From Bilabrum cf. latius (taxonomy: Eukaryota): DNA of 64,000 bases. The position numbers were made by a program, and so were the translations under genes. Under the pieces are notes generated by a model, which did no database searches, was not told the DNA's origin, and saw nothing but the letters and a program-made list of their open reading frames with translations. Shown here piece by piece: positions 1 through 64,000 of this stretch. Each line of letters begins with the position of its first letter. The first letter of the stretch is position 1. The stretch covers positions 124,001-188,000 of the forward strand of contig OZ237751.1 of NCBI GenBank assembly GCA_965178125.1, written 5' to 3'.

Positions 1-3000
1 ACGGCTCTATGCCCGCTCCCCGGCTGCTGTCTGTGTCCTCAGACGGGGGCAGCGTGGAGGAGCTGAGGGAGTTCGACCGGGTGTCGCTGGAGGGCTGGGG
101 GCTGGGGGAGGACCCGGGGGACATCGACGTGAGGCTAGGGGGGGCGCAGTGCACCTCCCCGCAGGTGTGCCACCGCACCTGCGAGCCGTGTTCCGGCCCG
201 GGAGACTGCGACTCGAACAGGGCTTGCGTCACCTTCGCCGGCTCGGACCAGCAGCCCTCGAGGAGCGTGTGCCTGCCGCTGTGCCAGGTGCAGCCCATCG
301 CAACGTCGGAGCTGTGTGCCTGCGGGCAGCAGTGCCGAACGTTCGCCACGAGCGCCCAGGGTTCCTTCGTGTCTCTTTGCGTGAATGGCGACATGGACCA
401 GCAGGGCATCTGCCCCGCTGGTAGGTCCTACGCCCCCTCCTAGGGCGACAGCGCCATCGACTGCTGGGCCCCGGGGGGGCAGTGTGGGCTCGAGGGGGTT
501 CTCCCAGCCATCGTGTCCAGCTAGGGACTGCCCTCCTCGGGGGTGATCAGGGCCGCTGACCCGCCCACTGCGGCGGGGGAGGAGCTGGGGGGCTCCCAGA
601 GCACCATGGGGATGGTGGATGGGCTCGAGTCCACTGCTGTCAGGTATGACCTTGACATGCAGGGGAGGGGCTTCACCTGCCAGGAGGACGAGGACTGCTT
701 GCCGGGGGCGGACGTGTGCAATGCAGTGCGGTGCATCCAGGGGTGCTGCGTGTCGTCTTCCAGCGGCCGGTGCGACACGGAGGAGCCAGCCGATCGAGCT
801 GTCCGTCTGCACGGGGCCCTCGTGCCTGTCCCCCTGCCGCGACGGGCTGCTGCCCTGCTGCCCATGCCCGGCCCGCTGCCGCTTGGCTCGGCCGGCACGG
901 GCGACACGAGGCTGGCTCCTGCCTCTGACGTGGACGACTCGCCCATGTCGCTGTTCCCTGGCACTGGAAGTGGTGGCTCGGCAGGCCAGGACCAAGCTGC
1001 GGTGGCAGGGGCCGGCCAGGGCGCCAGGCGCGCGCTGCGGGGTCTCTCGAACTCCTCGGACGACGACGATGCCAGCGGGGGTGCCGGGGACCATGGAAAT
1101 GGCACCACCGGTGTGCCGGCCGGGTTCGACCCTCCCTTTTTCGCCCGTCGGGTAGACGCCCTGTGGGTGGGATCCAACGGGTTCATGGGCAGGAACGGCA
1201 CGCATCCGTGCGGCGGACACTTTGGAGGTTTCGACTGCGGTCCGTTGAACCGGTACAGGGACTCGATTGCCCCTCTGCTGACCGACCTAAACCCCTCTGC
1301 CAGCGAGAGCGCCGCTCTGTGGGCCCGTGGCCTGCCTGACAACCGGAACCAGACCGATGTGGATGCAATTTCGCCCGAGAAGGTGGCGGCTTCGGGGGCG
1401 GCATGCGTGCGCTGGAAGGGGGTCCCGCTCTACGGGGGCCCTTTGGAAGACACGTGGAGCTTCACCGCGTGCCTGTTCGGGGACGGGGGTCTCCGCTGGA
1501 GGTATGAGGAGCTGCCTGTGGGGCGGGTGCCGGCGGTGACCCAGTTCCTGTCGGGGGTCAGGGACGAGATCGAGCAGGCGGACGACGCGCAGGCCGCGGC
1601 CACAGCGCTGCTCAGGCACTTCAGGCCCTCGGGCGGGTCGGCTGGCTCGCTGGGAGGCGCCGAGGACGGCTCCGACTTCGCGGTGCTGGGTACATCGGAC
1701 GTGCTGCTGGGCGCCGATGCCATTCAGGAGGCCTCCACCGTGGGGCTATGCCAGGCGGGGGCCAGCGCCTGCTTGTCGTCTAGGTGCGGCGAGGCAGGGC
1801 AAGAGATTCGCATGCAGTGGGCGGGCATCGGGTGCGGGGCTGGGCTGGGGACGGGGGCGGCCGGCGGGGCTGGGGTCAACGGCTCTGACGAGGCCGGGGT
1901 GCTGTGTCAGGTGGGTGCTGCCGTGTCACCAGCGAGGTGGGTGAAGCGACCCTCATGGGAGCGGGTCACCACCGTGATATCCGGCGAGACCGGCCCGGTG
2001 GAAGCAGGTGGAGACAGGCGCATTCCCGGCGAGGTGGTCTGCCAGGCCCCCCCGCTGGAGGAGGCCCTCGGGGCCCTCCCTGGATCCAGCGTGCCCGGGT
2101 GGGCCACCGGGGGCAGGGAAAGGTTGACCGTGCCCGTGTCGCTGGTGCTGCCAGTCCCCGTCACTCGATGGCAGGCTCAGGAGGCGCTGGACGACTTAGG
2201 CCAGCTGGATCGACACGGGTGGGCGGTGCCAGATGGCCCTGGGCTCGGCATCGGGGTGAGCAACGCGGCCCTGTAGCCCATGCCGAACTCATCTACCCTC
2301 TGGCAGCGACACGGGTCCTCTGGTGGGGGCTCCAACGGCACCTCTCGAGGGCCCCGTTGGTGGCACCGCGTCCTGCAGGGGGAGGAGAACGGGACAGCGG
2401 CGAGTCCCAGCGTGGTGGAGGTGTCGGTGCTCGGGGCACTCGCCGCTGACAACACCACCATACCAGCCAGTGCGGGGAACGGCACCGGGAATGGGTCGAG
2501 CACAAACGCGAGAAGGGCGCTGCGGCTGGAGCCAAACCCCGTGGCAGTGCCGCGGCAGCTGCAGGCGCAGGGGTCGCCGCTGGCCTCCCCTGCGTCTGTG
2601 CCCTACGACGTCTTGGAGACGCACCAGCTCTTCTTCTCCTACTCGCTGCATGCAGGAGACCAGACGTGCGGCTGCGACCTGGACGAATCGTCCGAGTGCG
2701 ACAACTGCGGTGAGCATTCCCGGCTTTGTGCGGTTCCTTCCCCGTTGCTGGCATCTCGTGTGCCGTGTTCCGTCTCCTTTTCATCAAGCGCTACGTCAAA
2801 TTCTTTCGTCTCAGCTGCCAACTCGCCGCCCTGTCGCGACCGTTCCTAATTTAGTATCGCAGGTGTATGTGGCGGCGGGGGCAGGTTCCGTGACTGCAAC
2901 GGCGACTGCTTCGGCACAGCCGTGGTGGACGAGTGCCAGGTGTGCTCTGGGGGCAGGACTGGCGTCCGCGCAGGAGCCGCCCTCGACTGCAATGGGATCT

Positions 3001-4807
3001 GCTGGGGACCCAACGACAACTGTCCGAGTCCTTCTCCTTCTCCGTGTGAGCTGCTTGTCGTGCGTGTTTCTATTAGCTTCCCTCGTGGTCTCAATGCTCG
3101 GCGGATCGATCCGATCGATCGATCTTTGCGAGTTGTTGCTGCCATCACGCGTGTCCACGGCTCCCTAGTTACATTTTGCCTGCAGATCCCTCCATGTCCC
3201 CGCAACCCAATCCTACTCCCACCGGTGGCGGCGCAGCACCCGAGCCGTCCCCTGGAGACGGGACCGACGACGCGTTCTTCCCATGGGTGGATGACGACGG
3301 GGACCAGGATGGAGGAAACGATCGCGAGCAAGTTCTCCTGACCGTGGTGGTGCTGGTGCTCTTTGGGACCTCGCTCATCATGTGTGGGGCCTACATCGCG
3401 GTGCAGTACTTCGAATACAGGGCGGCGCAGGCCCTGCAGGAGCGCATCAACGCGGGAGGCTTCGACGTGGGCGAGTACGTTCCGCCCGAGGGCATGCTGG
3501 ACGAGGTGCTAGCGGTGCTGCCTTTCTACAAGTTCAAGACTGAGGACGCCGACGAGGCGGATAGGAGGGACAGCCGTAGGGCGGATGATGTGCATAGCGA
3601 CAGCGGCAGCGGCAGCGGCTAGGCAGGCGCTGCACCCGCAGGAGAATCCAAAGAGTCCCCAGCAGAAGCTGCGCACGCCGGTCAAGGGTCAACCACTAGC
3701 GCTACTGCGGCTGCTGCAGGCGATCGCACTGGCACTGCTGCAGGGACAGCGGCGGCGCCCAGCACGTCTTCAGGGGGCGCAGAGGAGGACGTGAAGGTGC
3801 TTCCTCGCAACCGCGAGTGCCCCATCTCGCTGGAGGACTTCGAGGATGGAGACGAGACGGCGCTGCTGCCGTGCGGGCACTGCATCACGTACCACCTAGC
3901 GCTCAACTATTTCTAGCAGTCTGTGAGGTGTCCGCTGTGCCGGTCGGACACGCAGGCCCAGCTGGCAGAAGCGCATGGGATTGACCTCGATGCCGCCATG
4001 CGAAGACACAGGGAGCAGGCCATGGGGGAGGGCGGTGACGGTGGGGCCGGGGCTGGGGATGGGAATGCGGATGTAGGTGGAGGTGGAGGTGCGAATGGTA
4101 ACGCCGGGCAGGCAAGGGGTGCAGGTGGTGCACAGGCCGGCGGAAACACTGGATAGAGTGCGGGCAGGGCGCTACCGTCCTCGGGGATGAATCCGAGCGG
4201 CGCTAGCGAAGAGGACCCGCGGGGCACGACTGCTTCCAGCGGGCGTGAGACCAGCAGCAACGAGGGAACAGATCTGGAGATGGTGGCGGTGGGTCCTGCA
4301 CCAGGGTCCACTCACTCGGCGGCCTTCTTGCTGGGTCGGCGGGGCGGTGGTGGCAGCAGGCCAACGATCCAGACAAGCCAGGGACCCAGTGGAGCGGACC
4401 ACCACCGGCGCGCATCTGCCCCCGTTCGGTCGATCTCACCCCGCAGCGGGGCCTTCAGCATGTCCAACCCGTTGCAGGAGGGGGGTCGATCGGTGGGGGT
4501 GGCGGCGCACAGCCAAGGGGCCGAGTCGCTTGACAACCCCATAGTCTCTTTGAGCGCAGCATCAGTGAACGGCATGGACGCTGCGCACGACAGCCAGCAC
4601 AGCAGGAGCAGCGGGGGGCGGCAGCGGCTCCCTCCTAGCCGGACTGGGCCGCGTGTGGTCCATGGACCAACCAGCAGTGCGCCACCTCGAGTGCCACCTG
4701 GTGCCGCATTGGGTGGGGCTGGCGCTGCGAGGCCACAGTCGGGCGGGAGTGCAGCGAGCCGGTCACGTGCTAGCCCTGTAAGGACTGGTCAAGTCGCTCC
4801 GGTGTGA
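1..4807 (+). CDS. Large type-I membrane protein, 5' end outside the window: IPT/TIG-like, Cys-rich, PLXDC/NIDO-like domain, DCxGxC repeats, TM helix, cytosolic degenerate RING
   Basis: ORFs 9-443, 543-2276 and 2280-2709 share one frame joined by TAGs at 441, 522 and 2274. Introns inferred at 2710-2862 and 3046-3185. The last exon has TAGs at 3620, 3914 and 4154 and ends TGA at 4805. Motifs: FDPPFF..GSNGF..IAPLLTDLNP..SFTACLFGDG; TM VLLTVVVLVLFGTSLIMCGAYIAV; CPISLEDF..LPCGH..CPLCR. Confidence 0.75.
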
Positions 4808-5559: not shown

Positions 5560-8500
5560 TCACTCCCACTGACCACCCTCCACCTGGCGGGGCGACCCGG
5601 CGAGCGTGATCTCCTACACGTCGCTATCGGGTCCCTCGCTGCTCGGCAGGTATCGCGCCCCTGGAGCAGCGCCCGGGCGCAGGCTGCCGCCATGCTCGGC
5701 AGCGCCCGAGGCACCGGCAGCAGGAAGCGCTGACCCGCTCGCGGGTGCCGTCCGAGCGATGCCGCGAGACCGCACCACGGTCACAGCAGCCACTGCCACA
5801 GCCGCCAGCGCGATGAGCCCAGAGCCGCCCATGGCCGCCAGCGCGATGGCCGGCAGCTCGCCCTCCTCGGCACCGCCGGCCTGGTCTGCGTCTGTGGCGG
5901 CGGTCCCCGAGCCGTTTCCGCTGGCGGTTGGCGTGCCACCGCTGGCAGCACCGTCGTCTCCCAGAGGCTCCCCGAAGACCAGCTCGTCCTCATTGACTAG
6001 GTCCAGGGTGCTGCCCGCCGGCATACCTGCGGCGCTGGCCAGAACCTGTCCCGCGGAGGAGAGAGCAGAGGCCACGGCGGTTCCCTGGGAGGCAGGGAAC
6101 ACGGCCAGTCCGAGCTCGCCGTCCGTGGGGTTGGCGTTCACGTACACGGTCACCTCTGCGGCCAGCTCCGGGTCGGACTCGGCCAGCTGCTTCCTGACTG
6201 CATCTTGCGTGGAGGCGCGCACACCCTCTAGCTGCGCGCGCTGGGCGTTGCCATACGCGAGCATGCCGGCACGGGCAGCGCTGGCGGCTGCGGAGCCAAG
6301 CGCTGACGGGTCCACGGCCGCGAGGTCCACCTGAGCAGCGAGCTGGATGCGGCTGCTGGTGTCCACGCCGCTGGCCCGCACACTGTCCCGTATGGAGGAA
6401 CCCGTGGCCACCCCGGCTCGCAGCCTGCGCGCGCCCTCCTCGTGCTCGCTCTCTTCGTCCTCGCCGGGGAGGTCCAGCTGGCTGGGGCACGTGTCGCCGT
6501 CGATGCGGCCCCGCCTGGACTGGAAACTGGGCCCGAACCTAGTCCATCCGCCTTCCCCGTCGCTGCGAAACGTGCTAAAGGTGTAGTCCCTGTTGGCCAG
6601 CAGCTCCGAGGCGGGCACGATCACCACGGTCTCGTGGCAGTTGGGAATCTCCACGGCCACCGAGTAGTCAGTGTCCCCTCGCTGGGTCTCCCTCAGCACG
6701 AAGGTCCTGCTCTCCGGGGCAGTGGTCACGTCCTCGCAGTAGGTCAAATGCAGCGCGACACTGCCGTCGCACAGCCGCTCGTCACCAGTGATGGTCTCCA
6801 TGCGCGCGTTAGAGCCCGTGGGCCGGAAGTTGGGCAATGGGTATCCACCCGCCTGCTGCGCGGGCTCGAAGTCTTCCACGGTCTCCTTGGAGATGTCTAC
6901 CAGCGAGCCGCGTGTCCACCCGTGCACGGGGTCGAACGAGTGGATGGCGAACTGCAGATCCGCGTTCTTGAACTGTCCCAGGTTGAGCCACTTCTCCTCT
7001 CCAGTCCGCAGGGTCACCGCCCTTGCGAACTGCACGTCTCCTCTCCTCACTTCCTGGAGCAAGAACCGCTTGGGCTCGGCCCCGTGCCACTCGTTGTAGG
7101 CCACGCGCACAATCACATCGCCGCGCACCACCGCCGCCCCGCCCTCGTTCTGCAGCCCTGACTGCGCCCCCGCGCGCTTCCTGGCCCACACCTGCATGAT
7201 GCGGCCCCTGGAGCCCGTGTGCGAGTCATACCTGCCCCCGCGACCTGCCACCACGGTGGCATCATCTTCAGCGTCAGCGAACAGATCCACGCAGGTCTTC
7301 CCGATCTGGATCTTGTTGCCGTTGCGCCACCCGCCACGACCGTCCGCGTACTGAAGCGTGAACTCCAGATCCGACCTGTGCGGGTTGCCCAGGTCCACCT
7401 TGAGCTCCTGTCCGTTCGTGAGGGTCACCTGCTGGGCCAGGCGAACGTCGCCGCGGCGGGTCTCCCTAATCACGAAGGTTCGCTCCTCGTCTTCGCAGCC
7501 GTGGCGGTCGTTGTATCGCACGATGGCATGCACGTGGCAGTCAGAGGCGCGCTGCTCGCCGTACACGCCCACGATGCGGCCGCGACTGCCGGTGTGGTGC
7601 GTGGTTCGCTTGGGCATCTCCCCTGCAGCCGCCATGGCCACAGGGAACGTCTCGATCCTCTCCTTGGAAATGTCCACGGTCTGGCCGGCAACCCACTCGC
7701 CCCTAGAGTCTCTCCTCTCGTAGAATAGCGTAAAGCGAAGGTCCGAACGGTGCGGCTGGCCCATGTTGACCTGCACCTCCTCGCCGTTGGCCAGCACCAC
7801 CTGCTTGGCCAGGCGTACATCGCCGCGGCGGGTCTCTCGAATCACGAAGCGATCCACGTCGGGCCCGTTCAGGTCAAAATACTGCACCTGCAGCAATATG
7901 TCCCCATTGGCCGCGCGCCGCTCGCCGTACACAGGTACCAGCCGCCCGCGGGCACCGGTGGGTCTGTCATTGCGCTTGCGCCACACCTCGGTGGCGTTGG
8001 AGAAAGTCTCGAGGCACGTCTTGCCGATCTGGACCTTGTTGCTGTTTCGCCACCCGCCGCGACCGTCAGAGTACTGCAACGTGAACTCCAGGTCCGACCT
8101 GTGCGGATTGCCCAGGTCCAGCACCTGCTCTGTATCCCGCGCGATAGTCACCGTGCGACCGAAGCGCACATCTCCACGGCGGGTCTCGCGAATGGCGAAG
8201 GTCTGCTCCTCGGCGCACTCGGCCCCAGCTCCGTGGCTGGAGCACACGTACCTGACAGCGACCTGGACGCGACAGTTTTCATCCCGCAGGCCGTTCGCAA
8301 AGAGGTTGTCCATGCGGCCCCTGCTGCCCGTGCCTCGCACCGACCGCAAGGGCTCGCCCACGGCCGTGGCGGGCTGCAGGTCGTCCACGAAATGAGTGCC
8401 GATGGGCACCGAGCCCGACCGAGCCCAGCGCGGGTCACTGTCCTCGGGTCTGTCCTCGGGCATGTTCTGTCCCCTGCCCAGCTTCAGGTAGGACAGCTCG

Positions 8501-11500
8501 AAGGAGAGCGCTGCTGTGCGGAAGGTCCTCCCCAGCACCAGCGCAGCCTCCTCATGGTTGACCTGGCGGAACACGTACGTGTATTTGGTGTCACCGCGAG
8601 CCGTCTCGCGGATGCGGAACCACATGAGTGCGTCGTCCTCGGCTCGCCGATCCGAGTAGCGCACGGACACATGCACCTCCCCGCGGGGCCCGCGCCTGTC
8701 ACCCGAGTACACGTTGGAGATACGGCCTCGAGAGCCCGTGCCCCCGTCCTCCCTGCGCCTGGGGAAGCCCTCCTGCATCTTGGGCGAGCACACCCTGTCG
8801 GCACGCTCGTGGCAGTCCTCCACCTGATACTCGTCATACTCGCACACCGTGCAGTCCTCGCAGGTCCTGTCAAGGAACGCAGGCCCCAAAGTGCCATCTA
8901 TTGCCCCGCCGGTGCCCACGGAACTGGCCTCGTCGTCGTCGGGGTGGGAGCCTTGGCAGCTGCGGGTCTCGTACTGCGTGCCCGTGCACTTGGTGCACTG
9001 CAGACAGTGGGTCGCGGCCCCGACCATCAGAGCCTCGAAAGTCTCTGCCTGGCACACGGGGTTGCGGTAGGTCGTTGGCACCTGCCCCTCCGCAGGCCTG
9101 CACTCCTGGCAATGGCACCGAGGCGCGGGCAGGTTCAGCAGCGAGACGTCCGTGTAGCACGACGAAGGCAGGCTGGCGAGGTCTGCACCTGGGCGGATGC
9201 ACTGTGACGAGGATGAGATGGACTACACCCTGACTTTGGTGGCAGTGTGCCGGCCCACGCCTGTGAGAGCCACGTCCACCGTCTCTTTGCTGCTGACGCC
9301 CACCACGCCCACCACCGGGCACTCGTCGATGTCGCCGCAGTCGCCTCCTCCCGTCACTCGGAAGAAGGCACTGGGATTCAGCTGCCTCTTTCCGAAGTCG
9401 ATCTGGAGCACGGGCTCGCACTGGTCATTGCGCCGGGCCTCAATGGAACCGTCACCGATGGCGTTGGACAGCAGGCTAGAGGTGAACTGTCCGGACGCGG
9501 AGTTGGCCCTGTTTGGCCTGCGGGTGTATTCCCACTCCTGGGCCCCGCCCTCGCCCTGGTAGTCGGCGTCGAAGCACGAGGCAGGACCAGAGCGGCTGCA
9601 CGGTCCAAACCGCAGCTGGCCGCCCTCCGAGCACGAGTCCAACGGGCACAGCACCAGCACCTCCACCTGCTCCTCGGCCGTAGTCAGGCCCCGGTCGTCC
9701 TCGGCCTGCACAGTCAGCGTCGCGGCAAAGTCGCCATCATCATTCCTAAAATCTGTGCGAATCACCCTCAGCTGGTCCTCGGAGCTGGGGTCAAAGCCCA
9801 GGGCCTCCACGCATCTTGAGCTCGTGCAGCCCGTTATAGTAAAGGTGTGCGTGTCCTCTTCGTTCGGGTCAGCGATGGTCAGGCGAGGCCCCACGGCAGA
9901 GCCCATGGGCGCGTCCTTCCTCACCATGATGGGGTCCAGCGTGCTGAGGGAGGGCGAGAAGACCGGCGGCTTGTTGTCGGGGACCAGCTCAATCGTGAGA
10001 GTGGTGTCGTCAGTGAACGCAGCACCGTCTGAGTTGACTACGTCGTCCGTCACGCGCACGGTGAACTGGAACACCGTGCGACCAGCAGCCTCCTCCGTGT
10101 CGAAGCTCAGGCCGGGGCCACTGTATGTGATGTCACCGCTGCTCGGGTCGACCGTGATTGCGATGCTGGGAGACGGCTGGGTCGCGATCGAGTACACGAT
10201 CGAGCTCTTGGACGCGTCCGTGTCCGGATCGCTAGCTGCCAACGAACCCAGGCTATTGACAACGAACTGCCCCACCTGATCGGGCTCGGCCTCCACCATC
10301 TCCAGCCGCAGGTCACGGCTCTCGGCCAAGAAGCTCGGTGGCTCGTTGCAGTCACCCACGCGCACCACCACGGTGATCACGTCGACGGCCTCTTCGCCCT
10401 GCACGGGTGCCGGGTCCGTGATGGTCACCGTGCACTCGATCTCCGCCTCGGCCTCGAAGTCCAGAGCAGCCCCAGTGTACCATACGTCGATCTCGCCGGC
10501 ACCGCCACCTTCACGCAGCTCAAGCAGGTCACCATTGGATGCAGGGCACTGCAGCACGGCGTTGGCCACCACAATGCCGGAGTCGGGCACGTTCGCATCC
10601 TCCACGCTCACCGCGCCGGCCCTCCTGGCTTCGCTCTCGCACTCCTGGACCGAGAGGGTGAGCGTGCCCGGGCTGTTTGCCTCGTCGATGTCGGTGGCCA
10701 GCGAGGGAACTGAGTCGCACTCGAGCTGGTCGCGCTGGCCCACGGGGAGCTCTGGCTGGAAGCTGGTCTTGCACTCGCACGTCCATCTGCCATTTGCAGC
10801 CCATGCGTTCTCGGTGCACACGTCGCAAGGGACCGTGGCCCCGGACTGCCGATGGCGGATCCACTGTTGCCCCGGCAGGAAGCCAGAGCAGCTCTTGCAT
10901 GTGGTCTGCTCAGTCTCGTCCTAAAAAGAGGAACTGGAGCACGACGGGCACCAGGTGCTCCCAGCCCAGGAGTACCGGCCGGCAGGGCAGCTGTCGCACC
11001 GGTTGTCTCTCGTGTTGGTGGCGAATCCACCCGTGCACACCACATCAAAGTACAGCTCGTACTGGATTGGCTGCTCTGCCACAACGCTGCCATCACCATC
11101 TACTGATACTGCCTTCAGCACCACCCGGTGGCTGAATCCAAGCGGAGGATTGCCGGTCAGCCTCACGGTCGATGCCTGGGACAGGTCGATCATGGACGCC
11201 TCAATGCCCTCGCTGGTGGAGACCAGTTGCAGCTGCACCTGCAGCCCGCTGGCCTCTGTGATCCTCGCAACGGCATCGATTGTTAGAAGGGTATCCACTG
11301 TCCTCGTGGTCGGCGACACAATGGAACGCCTCCCCCGCACAAAATGCCTGCCTCCAGCTGTCACTGGCTGCGCCCTGCGGAAGACCCATTTTGGCGTGGT
11401 GTCCTCCAGGATCTCGATCTCGAATACGGACACTGCGAAGGTCCTGTCGGGGTTGGAGCCGTCGTATGCCACCAGCCCGAGCGTGAATCGACGGTCAGCA

Positions 11501-45525: not shown

Positions 45526-45777
45526 ACTCTCGCGGCGGGCCCTTCGGCCGCGGGATCCTGACATCGGAAGGCGCGCTTTTTATTTGATTGGCACAAAACT
45601 TGCGCCTGCCGCTCGAGCAGCGCCGAATTTGAACCGCAGCAGATGGGTCGGGTCTCGCGCGAGCCCTTGCGACCGCCGGTGCACCCCAACGGCAACTTCT
45701 CGGCAGTTGCGACCGCCGCTCGGTTCGGCTGATGAAAACACGAAGGCCAGTGCTTCGTTTCGACGCGCAGCACAGGC

Positions 45778-46695: not shown

Positions 46696-46837
46696 TTTGA
46701 ATAATGACCACCACAACTTTGATTGGTACGGCACTTGGATACAACTGCAGCTCGCACTCCTTCTTTCGAATGGCATAAATGATTCATGATTCATCCGTAC
46801 CTGTAGCAAGGCACGCCTGCTCCTTCCCAGCCATCGC

Positions 46838-48640: not shown

Positions 48641-48855
48641 GCCGAAGGTTATGAATCCAAACTATCTGCTGATAACAAATGCAAGCCGCCCAACTGCAGA
48701 AACAATCCAATATGGCCAACTTCTGAATGTGCCTTGAAAATGATTATTCCGTCGACCGAATCTGCACGCTACCCAAGTATCGCTTGCCGCTGCGTCACTA
48801 CACCAAGAGCGGCCTGTGAGTCACAGAAAAAGTTACACCATATCACAATAGAGCA

Positions 48856-52290: not shown

Positions 52291-52415
52291 CCTGCTAGGC
52301 CTGGCTGTCCTGTGTGCAGGCAACGGCAACTGCCCGTAAGTGGGTTTTGGTGTGACGACAAGACTAGGTCGGACAGCAAAATGCAAGGTCGTGTTGTCCT
52401 TCAATCGGCATAGTC

Positions 52416-54332
52416 TTATCTTCGCGTGGTTAGAGCGCGCCTCTGCCTGGTCCATCCCCACAAGGACGCACCCAAAGCAGCACAATGCAGCAGCAAGCCC
52501 CCGAGCATCACGTATCGGCCCACCTGCCTCGCAGTTGCAGCACCACCAACCCCTTGCACCTTCACCACGCCCGCTGCTTCCGCACGACCAGCCGCCTCCT
52601 CCCTCTCCCCCCCTCTCACATCCCCGGGCCCCACCACCACCCCCCTCCCCTCTCTCTCAACCTCCCTCGCCCACCGCAGCCTACCCTCGATCTTCGCCCT
52701 CGACTCCTCGTCAAAGGCCTCATCCGCGCCCTTCTCCAGAAGCTCCCTCGCGCACCCGTCCGTCAGCAGCACCCAGTTGTGCCTCGAGGGTCCCTCCTCC
52801 GGCCTCCACCGCGCCAGCAGCAGGCCCCCCTTCTTGGACCCCATCCGGAGCCCAGTCACCGCGCACCGGCCCCTCCACACGTGCGTCAGCAGGTACTCCA
52901 CCACGGTCGGGCTCACGTCGTCCTCCAGTTCCGGTTTCTCGACCCCGTGCTCCCGTTTTTCCCTGTGGGTCAGCCGGTGGAACGTCTTGGTGACCAGGCT
53001 CTTTGAGGGCCGGGGCAGCGTCAGGGGGCTCTTGATGGGCTTGCCCGCCAGCTCGCACAGCGCGTGCGTGGCCAGCGCCATTCCCATCAGAGCGGGAAGG
53101 GTGCCCAGGACCGGCATGACTCGGAGCCGCATGCCTCCCACGGCTCCGAACTCCGTGGGGTTCTCGGCCTGGGCTTTGGTGAGAGGCAGCAGCTTCACCG
53201 CGGGCTCCTCGCTCGTGTAGACCACTTGGGTGCTGGCCAGCAACTGCGCGTACCTCTTCGCCCCCTCCTCGCTGAGCTCGTCCTGCAAGGGAAGCCAGAA
53301 CATGCCGTGCTGCTCGTCCCCGCCGCCCTTGTCCTTGCCCTTGCCCTTGCCCTCGCCCTTGTCCTTGCCCTTCATCGCCGCCCTCCTGGCCTCCTCCTCG
53401 GGGAAGGGCGGCTCTCCTGCAGCCAGCCTCCTCTGCACCCTGCTCCTCTCCTGCTAGGGCAAAGAGGCGAAGTACTCCTCCTTGCGCATGTCTAATCGAA
53501 GCCTGTACCTCAGCTGGATGGCGAGCGAGTCCACGATGGTGCTGTCCAGCGTGCTCAGGTGCATCCTGGTGAAGTCGCACTTGCCCCCCGCCCCCAGGGC
53601 ACACACCACGGGCAGCCCCAGTCGGTCGCAGGCCATCACCAGCTGGGCCTTGGTGGGAGTATCGTCGATGCAGTCCAGGACCAGGTCGGGCTTGCCCCAG
53701 TCCAGGGAGGAGGCAGGGGCAGAGGAGGAGGAAGCTGCACCACCTGGGCCGGGGGCGGTCGAGTCGCCCAGCGATGCAGGCGGCTGCGCCGGACCCACTA
53801 GCAGCTCGTCGGCGGAGGTACCCCGGAACATCTGCGTCACCGCATCCACCTGCACGAACGGGGCAATCTCGTGGAAATGCGCCTGGCAGGCCTCCACCTT
53901 GGGGATGCCTACGTCGCGGCGGGTCGCGACAGCATGCCTGTTCAGGCTGGACAGGGTCACGTTGTCGAAATCGATGAGCCTGAGCTTGCTGACTCCAGAA
54001 CGAGCGAGCATGTGGGCTGCGTGTGACCCAACCCCCCCAAGGCCGACAACAACCACGTACGAGCCCTCCAGCTTCTGCTGGGGCTTGTCGCCAAAGAACT
54101 GGCGTATGCGGGACAGCTACTCGTCCCGAAGCTGGGGCGAATCTTCTAGAGCCTGGCCTGATACTGCATCCATGCCCGACGCAATGCTTCCAGCCGTCGA
54201 GGGGCCATGCTGCTTTTGTTTGCATGGGGCACCAGAGTTGGTTGCACCGGCGAACTCCTCAATGGCCAAACCTGCGAGAAATGCGAGGCTGCCCCCCGCA
54301 GAGCAAATTGCAGCTACCTTGAGAGGTTCCAT
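52416..54332 (-). CDS. tRNA threonylcarbamoyladenosine dehydratase (TcdA/TCD1-2, ThiF family)
   Basis: N-terminal TM, LRDE*LSRIRQFFG, VVVGLGGVGSHAAHMLARSGV, IDFDNVTLSSLNRHA, DCIDD, LGAGGK, VVYTSE, RVMPVLGTLPALMG. TAGs at 54117 and 53454; ends TAA. Confidence 0.9.
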
Positions 54333-54614
54333 TATAAATGCAAAGAACAAAGCAGGCACTTTCGCTGAAATTTGCGAAACTTGCGTCGTTCTTTTCTTGC
54401 CCGAGCCTACGAACGTTCGATGAAATAGTAGCGTGATGCTTTGATCAAGTCTGATATTTGCGCTACGTTCGAACTAGATCGATCCTGCCTGCTTCAGGCT
54501 GGGATCACAGAGCAGCACACAACCACAGTTTCATTTTATCACTACTGAGCTCCACATCCCTTACGGATTTGTCGGTATTGCGAAATAGAGTCGCCCGGAA
54601 ACGCTACTGGACTG

Positions 54615-57600
54615 ATGGCGGGGAGCAGCACTCCAATTCTACCAACTAGCCTCCGGTAGCTGTTGCTCGCGGTCGAAGGCGAGTACCAGGTTGACGATGC
54701 TTCCCTGATCTCGGCGTTGGGTCATTCCAGTCTCCCAGAGTCTCTGTCAAGGTTTGGACAGCACTTCGGGAAGCCCTCATAGAGTTCTCTCGAGGCCTTG
54801 CGATCCGGCGGCCCGGTGGTGTTACCAAGCGGGGAAACTCTTGAAATTAGTAGCGATGCCGCTGATAGCGAGGTGCGGTTCTGCGCCGATGTGGCGTCCA
54901 TGCTCCAAGTGGATGAGCTGCACGCCGCCGTCATATGGCAGCGCACGCCGGACTGCCGAGGCCTGGGAAGCTAGGAATAGCTGCTGCAGCCGCAATTTTT
55001 ACGAGTAGCGTGGCGCACGTACAGGGAAGAGCAGCTCGCGTCGATCCGCCTGCTGGAAGCGATGTACGTGCAGGCGCGGCAGCAGCTGCAGAGCGACTTG
55101 GCCATCCCCGAGGCGGCCGAAGCCAGCGGCGACGGGCCCGCCACGAGCATGGCAGTAGCGCTGGCGCGATGCCTGCGCGCCGTGGAGGAGGCGTGTACGG
55201 CTGGGAAGGGCAAGGCGGGCGTGGCTGCCGCTGCGGCCCGCGCCTACCTTCGGGTCAGGAAGGCAGACATGCCCGACGCGGACCTGGATCCGCCCCAGGC
55301 TGCCGTGGCCGCCGCCGGAGACAAGGCAGCCAGGGGCCCCGCGGGCGCCCTGCCTGCCACCATCACTTCTGCGGGTGAGCGCGCGTCCGCTGGGATCCGG
55401 AGCCGCTGGCCGTGCAGCTGCCTCCCGTGCCCTCAGATGGAGGAGGACGGGGCCGGCTTCCTGAGGGCGTTTCGGCGGGCGTGGGCCGAGCACCAGCTGG
55501 ACATGCAGAGGGCCCTTCTCTCTCTCATGGCCACGCTGGGGCACCAGTCCATGCGGCCGGTCACCTCGCTGCCCCCCGCCCAGCTAGGGGATATCCTGGG
55601 GGACCCCCTGGCGGACGAGCCGCCCCCGCAGCACCTGCGACACCTGGCACTGGACTCGGCCCAGGCCGCCGATCTGTGCCGGCAGCTGGAGGCATCGCTC
55701 CTCATGGCCGCGCTGGCGGGGCTGCAGCTGCATCTACCGGCGGAGGGCGGGCCCATGCCGCACCCGCTGCTGGCGCAGGAGCCAGCGGGCGAGGGGAGGC
55801 AGGGCACGGCAGGGGCGTTCGGGAGCCCCGATGGCAACAGCGGAGGCGGGGGCGCCGGACTGGGCGTGCCGGGCGGGCCGTAGTCCCCGCTGGCCGCGCT
55901 CTTCCACGGCGTGCATGCCAGGTGCGAGCAGTGGCGCGCGCAGACGAGACAGCTAGCACAGGGGGAAGCGGATGTCGAGGGCGCAGGAGCCGGCAGCGGG
56001 GCGCGTCTAGCGGGCGAGTCCGCGGTGGTGTCCCGAGCCATCCCCGCCCCGGTGCACGTGCCGCTGGCGCTGGCTCTGGCTGGGTTTGTGGAGCGGTTGC
56101 GCGCCACTGGGAGCTCCCTGGGCGCGCGGCTGGGACGTGAGATGCCGGCGGCCTCTGCCCTGATCCGGTCCGAGCTGGTGCTGTGCGGCGCCAAGGACGC
56201 CTTGCTGAGGGCCATCGCCGTGAGGGACGCGGAGGGGGCGGTGCCTAAGAGAGGTCGCCGGCGGGCTCTCCGATGGGCGGAGTCCCTGCGCGGGCTGGAG
56301 GACGCGGCGGCTTTATCCGGCTCGTCCGAGGGCGCCACGGTGTTTGGGGCACCGGTGCGTGCCGCTTGGCGGGAGGAGGAGGAAGTGGTGGCGGAGGCAG
56401 GCCACGACAGCGACAGCGAGGAGGAGGACTCGGGGGCAGTGGCGGGGCAGGACCTCAGATGGCTGGCGGAGGGCAGCTGGGACGTCCTCTCTGGGGAGCT
56501 GGATCGCACCCTAGCGCACCAGCTCAAGGAAGCGGCGCAGCAGGCCGGACCCGGGTCAGGGGCAGGGGCAAGCGAGAGCAAAGAGGCCGACCTACCGGGG
56601 GAGGGCGAGTCCAAAGAGGCAGAGCCGGCAGGCCCCTCCTCCTTCTCCTCCTCTCCGGAGGATGACTCCACGGAGGACCTGGAGCCCGCGCTGCTGCAGG
56701 AGGCCAGGGAGACGGAGGAGAGGAGGCACCGCCTGAGGTACCGCTCTCGAGCGGCTGCCATCGCCTCTGCCGTGCAGGACGATTTCTCGAAGAGACCGCT
56801 GCTGGCGCTGCCGCCGACCTCGGAGGAGTTCAGAGCCGCGAGGAGCAGCCTAGCAGAGGGCAGGGCAGGGGAGAGGGAGGGCGACTTGGGCGGGGGAGGG
56901 GGAGGCCCAGGGGGGCAGGAGGAGGCAGAGGGCGAGGTGCTGCCCCTGGTGCCTGGTCTAGGCGGCACGGGCGTGGGAGCCTCCCAGGGCGGGCTTGGGT
57001 CGAGGCCGAGGAGGCGATACCAGGCGCACGAGCGGAGCCTCTTCCGGCAGGCGGCGGAACTGCGGGGGAGCGATGCGGTGGGCGGGTCGTCATCATTGGG
57101 AGGGGTCGCGGCCTCCTCCCGTCCCGCGGCACAGGTGGCTCGAGAGCTCGGGGAACTGCCGCTGCTGCAGCTGCTGGAGGCGCGTGCGGCGGTGCAGCAC
57201 CAGTTCCCGCAGTCCGAGTCGGAGATGGACGCCTGCGTGTCGATGGTTCGCGGCGTATACCGGGGCCAGAGGCAGCGGGCCCTCGCGTTCTGGGCCTCGG
57301 TGGACCAGCGGGCCAGGGAACACGCGGGGGAGATGGCCCTGGATCGGGTGGTGCAGGCGGCCATCCGAGCGGACCCCGCGGTGGTGGACCACTCGTCCAT
57401 CCTGGGCGGCGGCGATGGGCTGCTGCGAGACCTCAAGCCGCTGGTGAGGCCCAGCGCACACGAGCTCGCCGCTGGCGTGGATCGCGCAGCGTGTGGCATC
57501 AGCCCGCTGCTCAGCCGTGCCAAGCAGCTGTTCCCGGCGCAGGTCAGGCACCTATGTGCCTTGGCAGAGGCGCTGGTGGTCCCCGGTGCGCCCGAGACGG

Positions 57601-60600
57601 CGCGGGCCACGGGGCGTTACCTTTCGCTGCTGTCGAGCGTGTGCTGCGACGCTCCGCTGGGAGATGGGGCTCTAGCCCGAGCGCCGGGGGCGGCGAGACA
57701 GGGGGCGATGCGAGCCGGGGAGCGAGTGCGGCTGGTGCGGCCGCTGGTGTCCGTGGGCGACTCGCTGGTGCTGCCGTCGGGGACCCAGGGGCTCGTCGTG
57801 GCTGCGGGGGCCGGGCCTGACCTAGACGGGCAGCAGGAGGGTCGGCGGGCGGCAGCAGCAGCCGGGCGTCGAGTCACGGCCCGCTGGAGAGTGTCCGTGT
57901 CGGCGTGGCCGGTCCTGGCCTCCCGCATCGGCGAGTGCGCCAAGGTCGTGTCCGCCGTGGGTCCCGCTGCCATGGGGTGCGGGAGGGCGCAAGAGGTGAC
58001 CGCTGCGCTCAGGCTATTCACCAGGATCATGGCGGCGGACGCGGGCGCCATGACGCAGGTGGTGCGGCAGCTCGTGGCAGCCGACGACTCCCTGCAGCAC
58101 CACTGCAGGCGCATGCAGAGAGCGGCAGAGGCCATGCCCCAGGGATCAGATGCCTGGAGGCGGGCCAGCGCTGCCGCGAGAGCGTGCGCGGAGGCCAGCC
58201 TCCACGGCGCGAGTGGGCGCACCGGTGCGCACGCGGGCCGGCGCGAAGCGTCCGCGGGGCGGTGGCTGGTGCGACGCGTATGCGCTCTGGCCATCGGGTG
58301 CGCGCAGGGCCACGGCGTGATCGCCGGAGGAGGCGTCGGCGCCGAGGGGCTGCGTCCTGACGGGGATGCGGAGGCCGTGCAGCGCGCTGCGGAGGGCTGG
58401 ATGCTGGCCTCTCGGGGGGGCCCGACCGAGCTGGATCCCGACTGGAGGGACAAGCTGAACGGGGACGAAGAGCTTGTGCGGCAACTGATCAGCGAGTGCA
58501 GGGCCTAGTGCCGGTCGGTCGCCATCGAGGCCATGCGGTGCCTCGCCGCCGTCACCTCTGCGCTACCCGGCCCCGCGCTGGAGGTGCTGACGCAGCCGCT
58601 GTCCCATTGCGTGGTCCTGTCCAGGGACTCGCTCCGGTCCTAGTCGATGCGCGGCGGCGCTGGCGGTTCTTCCCGCGCCAGCGCAAGCACCATCCTCGAG
58701 AGGACGCTCGCGGTGCAGGCCGCCAGCGAGGCCGTGGCCTCGGCTCGGGACGCTGCGGAGAGGTAGGGCGTGACGGGTGACGCGATCGTTGGCTTTAGCG
58801 CCCGCTCGGAGATGTCAGGGGCCGATGGGATGCGCACAGGGGGTAGCCGCGACAGGGAGGAGGCGGATCGGCAGGCACTCGGCACCTCCGGCACGGCGGG
58901 GGCGGGGCTCCTGCAGCTGGCGCTTGCCCTCCTTCGGGCCGGCGAGGGCGTGGTGGCGGAGGAGAGGCAGGGAGGCGGCAATGGCCCGGGGTCTGCCGCC
59001 GGTGGCGGCGGGAATTGCCCGGGGGTGATACCAACTGCCCTGGTGGCGCTGCGGCTGTGCACTGCCTGCCTGTCTGCCATCGCGCGCAGCCGGGCCCGCA
59101 TCCCTGCGCGAGAAGCGTTCCGCGTCTTTGACGAGGATGGGTCGGGCGAGGTGGACACGAAGGAGTTTACCGAGGCGCTGGGCCGCATCGGTGCGAGCCT
59201 GAGCCCCGACGCGACCGAGGCGCTCGTGGAGCTGCTGGACAGGGACGGGTCGGGCTCCATCGAGATCGACGAGTTCGTGCGGTTCGCGAGGGGCGAGAGC
59301 CTCCAGGAGCTGGTGGAGGCGGCGCAGGAGACGGGAGCCGACGGCAGCACGCGGGGGAGTGCTGGGATCCGAGGTGTGGGCGCGATGCAGCAGCAGTTCG
59401 CCAGGGCGGTGCGCGGATCGATCAACGAGTCGTCCGCCAAGAGCGCGCTCCTCGGCGGGCGCCGCATGGAGGCCGTTGTGCGGGAGCTCAGAGGGCTGGT
59501 GCAGATGCTCACGGGACGGACTGCCCTGCGTCGGAAGCAGGAGGAGAGGCTTGGCCGGGCGTGCTGCGATTTCGCCGCAAACGCCCTGCTGGCAGCGCGT
59601 GGCTTCTCGCAGGTAGCGGGCGGGGCCCCTCTGCGGCTGGAGGCCAGGCACTTGCTGGAGGCGCGCGCGCTGCGGGTGCTGTCGCTGGCGGCGAGAGACC
59701 TGACGGCGGAGGCGGAGGCGCAGGAGGACGCGGTCATAGGCGGGTCGAGTGCAGCCGAGACGGCGGCCATCGCAGCGGGCGTGCGGACGGACCGCAGCGC
59801 GCCGCACTCGCTGCGGGACGACGTGCTGCGCGGCATCCTCAGGTCCAAGCCCCTGCAGCGCGCCCTCGTGGGGTGCGCGCTGGAGGTCTCCATCTCTGGG
59901 ATGCGCGCCAAGCGCAGGCAGAGGGGCGCCGATGTGGCGGCCGCTGACCCTGGCCGCGCCGTGGAGCTGGCCTCTAGGCCGGCACCCCTCAGCGAGCTTC
60001 TGCAGGAGAGGGGTGCTCTCGGCGTGGGCGGGTCGGGGTCATCAGGCCAAGGGGGTGCAACGAGGTCCAGGAAGAGGGGGGCGCTAGAGGCCGAGGTGGG
60101 CGTGGGCGGGGCCGGGCTGCACGCCGCCGCCGTGTCTCTGCCCGTTGACTTCAGTCAGGGCGTGCTGTCGCAGTGCTCTATGGGACAGGGCCGGGGCCTG
60201 CTCGAGCTGAGGACCAGGCGAGCTCTGGGTCTGCTGCGGCTGGTGCTGCTGAGCCGGCCGGCGGGGCAGGACGGCGGGCAGCACGCCGCTGTTGCGTTTG
60301 CCATGCGCGAGGCGGCCCGCGGCCGCGGCAGCAGCCAGTGGCCCGCGTGGCTCGCAGCGGCTGCGACCCTCGCAGGCACGCCGCACGGGGACGCCTCGGG
60401 GCTGCCGTCCAGGGCGGTCCTGGACGGCGGCCTGGCGGGCGAGGCGTGGCACTCTTTGGCCTGGGACGCCTAGCGCAAGCTGGAGATGTTCTCGCAAAAG
60501 GTGAGCGTGGCCTACTTGCCCGGCCATCAGCCGGAGGGGGCCTCCCACGGCAAGGCCCGCATGCGTGTCCCGCTCATCGTGGCTCTCGCGGGGCTGCTGG

Positions 60601-63600
60601 GCTACCGCTGCCAGGGCATTGACTCTAGCGCGGACAGCAGCCGCAGCTTTGAGGCGTTCTTCCTGCCCAGCCGAGACGCGGGGGAGGCGCTGATGCACGC
60701 GCGGCAGCGAAAGGGCGCCCAGCGGGCCGCCAACCTGGTTGCTGTGGCGCGCGCCAACGCGCACACGATCTCCGTGAGCATAGCGGCGGGCCGGCTGCTG
60801 TCCATGCTGCTGCGGCTGACGGACGCCGTGCGCGCCTCCAGGGCACTGGCAGCGGTCACAACGGCCCTGGCCGGCAGGTCGGGAGCCGATCTGCAGGCGG
60901 GACTTGTGGCGGGGCCTTCCGCTGCGGGACCGGCGGGGGGCGCCGGCATGCCGGGCCAGATGGCCCCGGCGTTGCTGGCAGGAGCGGTTCGGACCGCTCT
61001 CCGCGCGTCTCCCCGGCTGGTGGACCTGCTGGGCACGGACAAGGACGGGGCTCGGGGGATGCTCTTTGGGGGCGCGGGGTCAGGGGACGCGGCGGCGAGC
61101 AGCATCAGCGGGAGGCGGCTGGTGGGGGAGGCCACGGTGGAGGGAGCCGTGGGTCTTGCGGAGCAGGTGGCTCTGGCAGATGGCCGCGCCCTGCCCCAGC
61201 TGATGGACGTGATCGACTCGGAGGTGCAGCAGCTGCCCGGGCTGCTGTCAGAGGGCGGCTACGGGATGGTGGCGCTGGACGTGGCTCGCGTGGCGCTGAG
61301 CTCCGACGACCAGGCGCAGGCGGCCCAGTGGGTGGTTGCGTGCGACGGGCAGATGGGCCAGAAGGGTATCCTGGAGCCGCTGGTGGCCGGACTCGAGGAC
61401 GAATTGGGCGGCGCCTACGACGGGGCTGGTCCCGCGGCCAAGGTGCGGCGCAAGGACACTGTGATCCAGTTCCTCGACGAGCCCCGCGTGCCGGGCTGGA
61501 GCGACGACCACGAGGACGGCACCGAGGGCGAGGGCAAGGGCAGCGGGGGCGGGGAGGGGGGCGCGCAGGGCCCCCAGGCCGACATGCTGGACGGCGCGCA
61601 GCACGAGTCGCCCTCCTCGGCCGTGGGGTTCCTGCACACGCCCAGGGGCCCGTTCGCTGGCCGCAGGCTCGTGGGGCCCTCGGCCGTGAGGGACGCGCTG
61701 GGAGTGGTGCTCGGCTGGCGCGCCGAGTGGAGGTGCTTCCCGCGGCGGCTGGCGCAGGCACTGGGGCTCCTGGCGCAGCTCTGGAAACGGGCGCACGGCG
61801 AACCTTCGGCAGCCTCCGGAGTGAACCCCTTGCCCGGCGCACAGGCGGGTGGGGTCGCATCCGCTGTCGGCTCGGGAGGCAGCGGGATCGACGCGGTGGG
61901 TGACGGCGGCTCGGAGGGCGCAGGGGGGCTGGGGCACCCTCAGCTGCTCGCCGCCGTGTCCCTCGTCCGCAGGTGTCCGGGGTTCTGGCCCGCTGTCGCA
62001 GGTCTGGCCGCGTACTCTCACGGAGATCCGGGCCTCAGGGAGGTGGCGGTGCAGGAGGTCGCTCTGGCGGAAGCGGTCAGGCGAGCGGGGCCGGGCGGAT
62101 TCTCCGCTGGGGGCGGTGGGGGCCCCTAGAGCCAGTCGTAGCAGGGAGGCATCCAGGGCCGTGATGGAGTTGCATCCCCCCAGGACCTATCCGCGAGGGG
62201 GGCGGCCGAAGCGGCTGCGCTGGAGCGGACGCGGGCCCACCGCGAGGCATTGTTCGGCAGCGGAGCCGAACCCGGCACCCCGGGTCAGGGGGGCCCCGGC
62301 GCATCGACCCCGCGCAAGCAGCGGTCGATGGCGCTGTCCCCCGAGGCGGTCAAGACCCGCATGCTGGACCAGGTGCAGCAGGCCGGCTTCGCGGCCGAGC
62401 ACGCTGGCTGGCGACCCCCCCACGTGGGTGTGCAGCTGGAGCACGCGGAGGCCCAGGCATCAGACAGGGCGGGAGCGCCGGGCATGTCACCCGCCGCTGT
62501 GGCCCTGTACTGCTACCGCACGGCGGCGCGTGCGCTGGCCCTCCGGCTGCTCACTCTGGAGCTGCTGGCCGTGTCGGCGGGGGCGCCCGGCTCCCTTCTG
62601 TCCAACCGCGGCGAGGAGCTCAGCGCGGACCACGAGCTGATCGAGCGCGTGATCGATGCGTCGGGGAGGGGCGGAAGGGGAGACATCCCGGGCGGGGCAG
62701 CGGGCAACGTGGGCGCCGTGGCCATCTGCCGGTACATCTGCTAGAGCGCCACGGAGTCGGCGGTGCGAGGCGCGGCGCGGCTCACCGAGGCTGCCGCGAG
62801 GGCCGGGGCACAGGGGGGAGATGGGCCAGGGTCCGGCGATGCCGCCGAGCCGGGGGCCGCGTACGCTTCTCCGCTCAAATCTGCCGCCGTGTCGTAGGCT
62901 GTGCTGGAGGCGCGCTAGCAGGCTGTGCGGGAGGGTGCGGGCGCGGGGACAGCCGCCGCACCCGGTGGATCGTTTGGCGCGGCGATGGGGAAGGGGCTCT
63001 TCCGCCCTTTTTCGCAATCCTCCATAGGCACGGACTCGTCAGGAGGCAGCGGGCAGCCGGGCGCGTTGCCCGGCGTGCCCCAGCCGCTGCGCATGGCCTT
63101 CGCGCGCGCCGTCGTGGAGTGCCTCTCTGTGACACACGCACCCGAGGCGGAGACGGCTATGGGGGACGCGGCCGCGACCGTCGGGCTCCGGCTGGCTGCC
63201 TTCCGACGGATGCATGACGCGGGAACGGCCGTCCGGCTGTGCCCAGGAGGGCTCGCCGGGTGGCTGGGAGCAGACCGGGCAGCCGAGGCGCTGGCTGCCG
63301 CTGGCAGGGGAAGCGGTACCGGGGGTGGGGGCGTGTCGCCGCCGGGGGCCTACCTGCAGGCCGCCCTTGCGAACGCGAAGCGGCTGAACGTGCTGCCCAC
63401 CACTGCTCTCATGGCTGCGGCAGATGCGGCGCTGGACCGCAGCTCCAATGCACTCGCGAGCGGTGGGACCCGCAGCAAGCAGAGCCAGGTGGAGACGAGC
63501 GAGGGCGTGGCGGACGAGCTCGACGGGGCCGCGGCTCCCTACGGCGATTCCTTCCTCTTCGACGTGGAGGCGGCCGCGGCGCGGCTGGGTCTGCGGAGGC

Positions 63601-64000
63601 AGTGGCGGGCCATCCGTCAGAGGAGGTCAGCCCGCTGGGGCATGGACAACGCCAAGGCCGTGGTGATGCTGCGGCGGGCCGCTCGCTCGCTGACCTCGGC
63701 GGGGGACGGGCCTGGCAGCCCGGTGAAGAAGAGCTGGGGCAGGGGAGCGAGGCCCGCAGCGGCTGGCGCATTCGCCGCCGCGAGAGGTGCCGCCTTGTCG
63801 TCGTCGTCAGCGTCGATGGCAGGCGCCGGCGGCCGCGTCAAGCTCGTGTTTGGCGGTCCCCGGAGCCTCTCCGAAGAGGACGAGGCGCAGCTGGTGCAGG
63901 ACTACCTGGTGGCCTCCGCGGCCGGGTGGGGCCCTCTCCCGCCGGACAATCAGGCGGCGTGCGGCATCGCCGAAGTCGCCGGGGCCCTGCGGCTCGCCCG
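54615..64000 (+). CDS. Nucleoporin Nup188-like scaffold protein (>3100 aa, 3' end outside the window) with an inserted EF-hand pair
   Basis: Single open frame from ATG 54615 to the window end, with about 14 in-frame TAGs and no TAA/TGA. FGKPS*SSLEALRSG, VASMLQVDELHA..YREEQ, LPSGTQGLVV..ARWRVSVSAW and YGDSFLFD resemble Nup188-family blocks. Confidence 0.6.

Follow-up and report, generated by a model that had tools for sequence, protein, structure and literature searches.

Gene content of the window

The 64,000-nt stretch of DNA analyzed here (the window; positions 124,001–188,000 of contig OZ237751.1, assembly GCA_965178125.1, listed under Bilabrum cf. latius) has a GC content of 60–74% and carries tightly packed eukaryotic genes with few introns. 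Under the standard code many of these genes would be interrupted by in-frame TAG triplets, and it is the meaning of this codon that concerns us. Pfam families recognized in the window comprise N-acetylglutamate synthase (NAGS; NAT plus AA_kinase), ThiF/TCD, RNA_pol_I_A49, TPR_12, RING/ZZ, pectinacetylesterase and Methyltransf_7; the recognized genes also include those for a SABATH-type methyltransferase, a group-1 glycosyltransferase, EF-hand proteins and two pectinacetylesterases. An initial annotation, made from the DNA letters, had already assigned genes to the RPA49, TCD and NAGS families, and the matches to RNA_pol_I_A49, ThiF/TCD and NAT with AA_kinase agree with it.

The gene for the N-acetylglutamate synthase/kinase-like protein (23197–25668, forward strand) contains TAG at 24271, within the AA_kinase domain, and at 25036, in a motif of the NAT domain. 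On the reverse strand, the gene for TCD (tRNA threonylcarbamoyladenosine dehydratase, ThiF family; 52419–54530) has TAG at 54117 and, within an insertion, at 53454, and ends with TAA. TAA also ends the reverse-strand gene for a small RF-1 domain (PF00472) protein (16432–16902), whose three TAGs (16696, 16669 and 16663) sit in the conserved core of the GGQ domain; its label derives from precomputed Pfam domains of two homologs, the window copy itself being outside the Pfam scan. The gene for an RNA polymerase I subunit A49-like protein (46841–48820, reverse strand) carries TAGs 48323 and 48023 inside its Pfam match and TAG 48662 upstream of the first ATG. Seven TAGs were found in the gene for a TPR_12 repeat protein (36154–40617, reverse strand), with 38416, 37744 and 37282 in or beside TPR units, and eight in the gene for a RING and ZZ zinc-finger protein (48859–52656, reverse strand). 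Four lie in a RING-H2 protein gene (3050–4804, forward strand), including TAG 3914 within the zf-RING_2 domain, and ten in the gene for a 2709-aa Cys-rich/cadherin-like surface protein (5563–13689, reverse strand), where TAG 10921 falls inside an Ephrin_rec_like (GCC2_GCC3) repeat. The EF-hand (calmodulin-like) gene (45778–46695, forward strand) consists of four exons (to 45806; 45951–45968; 46065–46273; 46415 to a TGA stop) and has TAG as its fifth codon (45790) and at 46264, the Pfam matches in exon 3 ending ahead of the latter. For this gene the name LC4 had been proposed; Pfam supports an EF-hand protein, while the LC4 identity itself is unconfirmed. Positions 25036, 24271, 54117, 16696, 10921, 37282, 45790 and 46264, cited in the initial annotation as diagnostic sites, all turned out to be in-frame TAGs within the peptide contexts ascribed to them.

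TAG is the only stop triplet found in frame

To quantify the in-frame TAGs, we used 18 candidate open reading frames (ORFs), bounded by TAA or TGA, that were chosen for matching Pfam or for their GC by codon position. Their 17,816 codons contain 81 TAG, 0 TAA and 0 TGA in frame 0. As many as 72 of the TAGs, in 15 ORFs, lie past the first ATG, and the spliced EF-hand gene contributes two further ones (45790 and 46264), which gives about 74 TAGs in 16 genes, close to the initial estimate of about 75 in 16. In the +1 and +2 frames of the same 18 ORFs we counted 246 and 228 TGA, 100 and 99 TAG, and 28 and 27 TAA, respectively, so that TGA is 2.3–2.5 times commoner than TAG. As the off-frames yield mostly TGA, decayed or non-coding sequence would be expected to be rich in TGA.

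The longest stop-to-stop ORF measured 1202 aa under the standard code and was unchanged when TAA or TGA alone was treated as sense. When TAG was treated as sense, the longest ORFs reached 3150, 2709, 1488, 1266, 1109 and 1028 aa. Summed ORF length was dropped as a statistic, since reading TGA as sense inflates it too in GC-rich DNA. GC at codon positions 1/2/3 was 0.67/0.56/0.71 before and 0.67/0.55/0.71 after the TAGs (50 codons on each side), and omission of three ORFs lacking family support removed 15 TAGs and altered nothing else. Single stretches of Pfam hidden Markov models (HMMs) cross TAGs in RPA49, NAGS and the TPR protein, and alignments with homologs cross them in TCD, NAGS and the RF-1 protein, in line with the earlier observation that frame and homology continue past these codons. 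The base 3′ of the in-frame TAG was G in 30 cases, C in 25, A in 13 and T in 13, with no special context.

TAG is retained in spliced transcript contigs

We compared the window with contigs, not raw reads, from seven sequencing runs: one window stretch is covered fully by X1–X4, all of one sample, and largely by X5 and X7 of a second study and X6 of a third. Across 37100–54590, which contains 32 TAGs, a different letter was seen at two positions only (39909 and 39913), neither of them a TAG; in four runs none of the 32 TAG positions had an alternative letter. Pieces of X5 with zero differences cover 21 TAGs in the TPR, EF-hand, A49, RING/ZZ and TCD genes, including all seven of the TPR gene.

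The EF-hand gene allowed the transcript to be followed directly. A 141-nt GT..AG intron (46274–46414, forward strand) is absent from one contig each of X5, X6 and X7 and retained in a 50-kb DNA contig of X1; as the intron has been removed, the X5–X7 contigs are derived from spliced mRNA. TAG 46264 is unchanged in all three spliced contigs. In addition, X6 and X7 contigs link exon 1 via a small exon to 46065 and also carry TAG 45790. The reading frame starts with ATG 45778, has TAG as the fifth codon and continues in frame into EF-hand 1. The small exon (45951–45968, forward strand) is a micro-exon of 18 nt flanked by AG and GT, and its letters are found between exons 1 and 3 in the X6 and X7 contigs. 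The presence of UAG in transcripts, which the initial annotation had proposed to confirm, was observed: spliced X5–X7 contigs carry TAG, and CAG occurs at none of the 32 positions. TAG persists in mature mRNA and is not edited away, and genes that are conserved, transcribed and spliced use it often as an in-frame codon.

The same pattern occurs in a related environmental contig

A scan of metagenome contigs with the TCD alignment retrieved an environmental contig, L001 (9681 nt, GC 58.5%), which is syntenic with the window: TCD is followed by the RING/ZZ gene, and a counterpart of the 3150-aa ORF lies on the opposite strand. The proteins of window and contig are 64%, 51% and 57% identical. The longest ORF of L001 measures 550 aa under the standard code, and with TAG as sense its ORFs extend to 1352, 983 and 765 aa. 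In 3100 codons of the three orthologous genes we counted 26 TAG, 0 TAA and 0 TGA. Two TAG positions are common to both, the TCD site E*LSR (54117; asterisks denote TAG) and the RING/ZZ site R*PLQ (51745). A related organism, as judged from this contig, shares the trait, which is heritable across a small clade.

A further relative was met in searches with the RF-1 protein, for which a word-index search gave two hits and a full HMMER search retrieved the family. The predicted protein P0121 is 84% identical to the window protein and stops one residue before TAG 16696, the end point that a standard-code gene caller would give at a shared TAG. The next contig in the TCD sister clade, L002 (16,099 nt, GC 72%), has standard-code ORFs of 1323, 1147 and 989 aa and none of the TAG dependence of L001. 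This gives a weak hint that the code change is limited to the lineage of the window and L001, and L002 could act as an outgroup to date it. A similar scan of metagenome contigs with RPA49 gave 590 pattern matches, none of which was confirmed, and a tRNA scan of L001–L003 found no tRNA genes.

UAA and UGA remain stops

We examined whether UAA had been reassigned together with UAG by taking the TAA:TAG ratio to follow CAA:CAG. With this expectation, 13.6 in-frame TAA would occur in the window (CAG 596, CAA 100) and 11.3 in L001 (CAG 83, CAA 36), vs. none observed in either. Under a coupled code, in which UAG and UAA (UAR) both encode Gln, the probability of finding no TAA is about 1e-6 for the window and about 1e-5 for L001. 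A coupled code of the table 6 type requires in-frame UAA and was rejected, as both organisms have none. Codes in which all stops are reassigned or ambiguous, as in the Condylostoma, Blastocrithidia and Amoebophrya types, were likewise rejected, given the lack of in-frame TGA and TAA vs. 246 and 228 off-frame TGA. The 17 complete candidate ORFs terminate with TGA (14) or TAA (3), and the EF-hand gene with TGA. UAA is not reassigned together with UAG, and both UAA and UGA still terminate translation. Of all putative Gln codons, about 10% are TAG in the window, vs. 18% in L001.

Gln ranks first in three tests of the encoded residue

To infer the residue encoded by UAG, we performed three tests. 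In the first, only homologs (120 TCD, 16 NAGS and 151 RF-1 domain proteins) went into the profile HMMs, and six TAGs fell in match columns. The summed ln emission was highest for Q (−12.35), followed by K (−14.93), R (−15.58), E (−16.30), V (−16.55), S (−16.71), A (−16.95), L (−17.70), Y (−23.65) and W (−30.65), and with a flat prior the posterior of Q over the six sites was 0.85. Three columns named as Gln sites in the initial annotation held up as such: Q occupies 62 of 120 rows at the TCD site E*LSR (L30, M16, I7, V4), 13 of 16 at the NAGS site TA*GEQLG (R3) and 65 of 152 aligned rows at RF-1 site 1, AV*LTH, where V32 and R13 come next.

In the second test, Pfam matches spanning about seven sites were rescored with TAG translated as Q, K, R, E, L, S, Y, W, V or X. 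Q was best or joint-best in four of five families. The bit scores were as follows: for RNA_pol_I_A49, Q 112.7, E 112.7, R 111.9, K 111.9, S 111.8, V 110.3, W 110.1, Y 109.6 and L 109.5; for TPR_12, Q 318.4, R 317.8, W 316.3, E 314.7, S 314.1, K 314.0, V 311.9, Y 310.6 and L 299.8; for TPR_10, Q 273.8, R 272.5, K 271.8, S 270.5, E 268.2, W 268.2, Y 267.8, V 266.9 and L 265.9; and for Ephrin_rec_like, Q 24.7, K 23.6, R 23.1, S 21.7, E 21.6, W 21.6, V 21.0, L 20.6 and Y 19.7. In the fifth, zf-RING_2, Q (40.1) was 0.4 bit under R (40.5), with K 40.3, E 40.2, S 39.3, V 38.7, L 38.7, Y 38.0 and W 37.8. Summed over A49, TPR_12, Ephrin_rec_like and RING, the scores were Q 495.9, R 493.3, K 489.8, E 489.2 and L 468.6. 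The TPR sites, for which sister repeats had been cited in support of Gln, entered through these Pfam scores; the positions vary among repeat units and carry little weight alone. TAG 52012, in a SWIM-like region, was left out of the residue tests because no Pfam match was found there.

For the third test, per-residue substitution frequencies were taken from the alignments of window and L001 proteins and used to calculate the likelihood of the residues opposite TAG, at sites with at least 2, 3, 4 or 5 of the 8 flanking residues identical (29, 21, 14 and 11 sites, respectively). The posterior of Q was at least 0.99 at all four thresholds. At the level of at least four the partners were Q3, A3, S2, R2, P1, G1, H1 and D1; even such a mixed set best fits Gln, as Gln is poorly conserved in this pair (Q opposite Q in 58 of 129 cases). 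Gln, which ranked first in all three tests on small samples of sites, is most likely the residue that UAG encodes.

Weighing of alternative explanations

We consider it highly probable that the window derives from the nuclear genome, rich in GC and poor in introns, of a protist in which UAG is read as Gln and UAA and UGA are still stops. A sense reading of UAG, with Gln as the most likely residue, had been proposed in the initial annotation and is upheld here by the TAG-only in-frame stops, the spliced contigs, L001 and the three residue tests. By analogy with other UAG-only reassignments, and as the initial annotation had proposed, a tRNA-Gln in which a single base change turned the anticodon CUG into CUA would read UAG, and such a tRNA would spare UAA because C34 pairs only with G; the release factor eRF1 would have lost recognition of UAG.

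Several observations weigh against this interpretation. The zero count of in-frame TAA and TGA is partly built in, since the ORFs were bounded by these triplets, and it counts independently only where alignments with homologs or orthologs span the ORFs. A tRNA scan found no tRNA genes in the 64-kb window, which does not encode eRF1 either. X1 is possibly the source of the window itself and therefore not independent, X5 was automatically rated "RNA? (probably DNA)" and is taken for RNA from its spliced contig and uneven depth; none of the records of matching runs is listed as RNA, and the spliced contigs are the ground for regarding X5–X7 as such. As for the residue, the NAGS site SL*PLK, also cited as a Gln site, has Q among its commonest residues, but tied with R (R5, Q5, E3, S1, K1 and V1 of 16). 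In the 152 RF-1 rows, V46, S18, T17, R13, I11 and M11 precede Q8 at site 2, and K59, S21, R14 and H14 precede Q13 at site 3, where E12 follows. The Pfam rescoring tried only 9 of the 20 residues. Opposite TAG in L001, Q occurs at just 3 of the 14 well-flanked sites, equaled by A, and at the loosest threshold at 4 of 29 vs. 5 of 29 for A. Finally, calmodulin-like proteins would usually be expected to have Glu or Asp at both TAG sites of the EF-hand gene, as the initial annotation said of Glu at 46264.

That UAG is sense for a residue other than Gln, with Arg, Lys, Glu, Ala and Ser as the next best, appears very unlikely to us. R, K and E are within 3–4 ln units of Q at the six profile sites, R trails Q by just 2.6 bits in the summed Pfam scores and outscores it in zf-RING_2, and Ala is as common as Gln opposite TAG in L001; moreover, assignments of UAG to Glu, Leu and Ser are known from other organisms (PMC11687900). 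No alternative residue, however, does well throughout the three tests. For R, K and E the ortholog test gives a failing posterior of at most 0.002 at every threshold; the profile test is the one in which Ala, Ser and Thr fail (−16.7 to −18.0 vs. −12.35 for Q). Leu, Tyr and Trp are strongly disfavored in both the profile and Pfam tests, Leu for example reaching 299.8 bits vs. 318.4 for Q in TPR_12. Since the TCD site permits Q, L, M, I or V and the second NAGS site Q or R, Q alone is found in both. It is decidedly improbable that UAG is ambiguous, i.e., Gln within genes and a context-dependent terminator of some of them, as is described for Condylostoma, karyorelict ciliates and Blastocrithidia. 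A single window forms the basis for judging this, and true C-termini are known by homology for few genes; yet all 17 complete candidate ORFs can do without TAG as terminator, TGA or TAA comes soon after conserved C-terminal regions, and the base following in-frame TAGs shows no special context. Artefacts or defects, be it sequencing or assembly error, reverse C-to-U RNA editing or pseudogenes in decay, are hardly credible. Their one point of support is that X1, the DNA run that best covers the sequence, is possibly the window's own source. Against them, one stop triplet of three occurs in frame, contigs of three studies are identical at the TAGs, spliced transcript contigs included, and the independent contig L001 shows the same TAG-only pattern with two positions in common. 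Sequencing error, editing and pseudogenes are ruled out because alignments cross the TAGs and the spliced contigs keep them.

Other features of the window

Among the remaining ORFs, one of 948 aa without family (3–2846, forward strand) has three in-frame TAGs (441, 522 and 2274), a TAA end and a coding-like GC by codon position of 0.67/0.59/0.81. A coiled-coil-like ORF of 1028 aa (42496–45579, reverse strand) has five TAGs. A giant ORF of at least 3150 aa (54549–63998, forward strand) contains 14 TAGs and continues past the window end. It had been called Nup188-like, a label that found no support, as only EF-hand matches were obtained against Pfam and PDB sequences; an EF-hand pair near residue 1520 is its sole recognizable domain. 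Its N-terminal 1300 residues are 57% identical to the L001 counterpart. Three reverse-strand ORFs are of uncertain gene status: a low-complexity ORF of 977 aa (19266–22196; three TAGs), for which no convincing family was found and the only match, to Trypan_PARP, was sub-threshold (17.1 bits vs. a cut-off of 100), and those at 29446–32772 (eight TAGs) and 40627–42492 (four TAGs). All three are without family support, the family scan having covered the first two, and they may not all be genes.

Two pectinacetylesterase (PAE/Notum-like) genes were recognized by Pfam, one without TAG (33338–34225, forward strand) and a paralog with a single TAG at 35138 (34448–35338, reverse strand). The copies are nearly identical and inverted, arranged tail-to-tail (convergent) with a gap of about 220 nt, and diverge chiefly in one short stretch, inside which the only TAG of the second copy lies. 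This TAG is uninformative on the residue because the two copies differ around it. A protozoan-type signal recognition particle (SRP) RNA gene (18060–18269, forward strand) gave a full-length match to Rfam RF01856 with 73.4 bits, the sole match in an Rfam scan of the window; its neighbors are the RF-1 domain gene on one side and a small SNARE-like ORF on the other. Two of the proteins are repetitive. In the 2709-aa surface protein, a domain of about 125 residues without Pfam match is repeated in tandem about seven times (5563–9200, reverse strand); next come a stalk rich in Gly and Ala and a transmembrane segment. The TPR protein has at its C-terminus (36154–37020, reverse strand) a long tandem array in which an 8-residue unit of Gly, Glu, Ala and Ser recurs almost perfectly.

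Host lineage

The best named match of NAGS was Cafeteria roenbergensis, with 44% identity over 38% of the query, and the named matches of TCD were mainly from oomycetes and ochrophytes. In a quick TCD tree (SH-aLRT), the window and L001 grouped together (100) beside a sister clade (85). The two branched outside oomycetes and ochrophytes, with choanoflagellates further out. The host is probably a stramenopile outside Gyrista, as suggested by this single-gene tree from a quick search. The same sequence occurs with zero differences in X1–X7, i.e., in three studies under three coded organism labels, and small shares of it were also found in "algae" and "protist" metagenomes. The source organism may be a co-cultured or contaminating flagellate.

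Comparison with known codes and significance

Reassignment of UAG alone to Gln is listed in PMC11687900 for two phyllopharyngean ciliate lineages, Protocruzia tuzeti and Iotanema spirale; the Iotanema and rhizarian UAG codes were originally reported in PMC5304391. Since this code type is already listed for ciliates, Protocruzia and Iotanema, it is not new as such. As in Iotanema spirale (Fornicata), Protocruzia and the phyllopharyngeans (NCBI table 15), UAG is Gln, UAA and UGA are stops, and UAG is uncoupled from UAA. Unlike in those hosts, the genome here has 65% GC and is intron-poor, its TCD falls beside, not within, oomycetes and ochrophytes, and its NAGS is closest to Cafeteria. According to PMC11687900 and PMC10553269, UAG encodes Leu in an uncultured rhizarian, Ser in Scotinosphaera and Glu in an oligohymenophorean ciliate, in which UAA is Lys. 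These codes share with ours the uncoupling of UAG from UAA, whereas Leu, Ser and Glu score clearly below Gln here. The crAss-like phages with code 15, in which TAG is read as Gln, recode late genes in bacteria (PMC9523058); here the codon is found in eukaryotic nuclear genes with spliceosomal introns.

A stop codon captured by Gln, presumably through a mutated tRNA-Gln, is also common to the table 6 codes, but UAA stays a stop here. Coupled reassignment of UAR to Gln (NCBI table 6) is known from many ciliates, hexamitid diplomonads, some ulvophyte algae and oxymonads.

Our findings thus look like an already known code change in an apparently new lineage. In the literature searched, in which subscription journals were thinly covered, no nuclear code change was found reported for stramenopiles, bicosoecids or Cafeteria relatives; the runs are from 2025, and a prior report of a stramenopile case may exist. 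On balance, we lean towards the view that no earlier nuclear code change has been found in stramenopiles and that this one is an independent reassignment of UAG to Gln with UAA kept as stop, in a genome of 65% GC and in a small clade formed by the window organism, the source of P0121 and L001.

Few organisms depart from the standard nuclear code, and fewer still give UAG a meaning other than that of UAA. A new case of independent origin, from another supergroup, would be a further natural experiment on stop-codon capture, to which a genome rich in GC and not in AT adds value; high GC would not be expected to favor mutational loss of TAG ("codon capture"). It touches on whether the route leads through a tRNA-Gln(CUA), how eRF1 could lose UAG and keep UAA, and whether mutational pressure is needed. 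In practice, standard-code gene callers truncate these proteins, as seen for P0121 ending at a TAG, and annotations, protein databases and metagenomic bins for the lineage would be wrong until translation table 15 is used.

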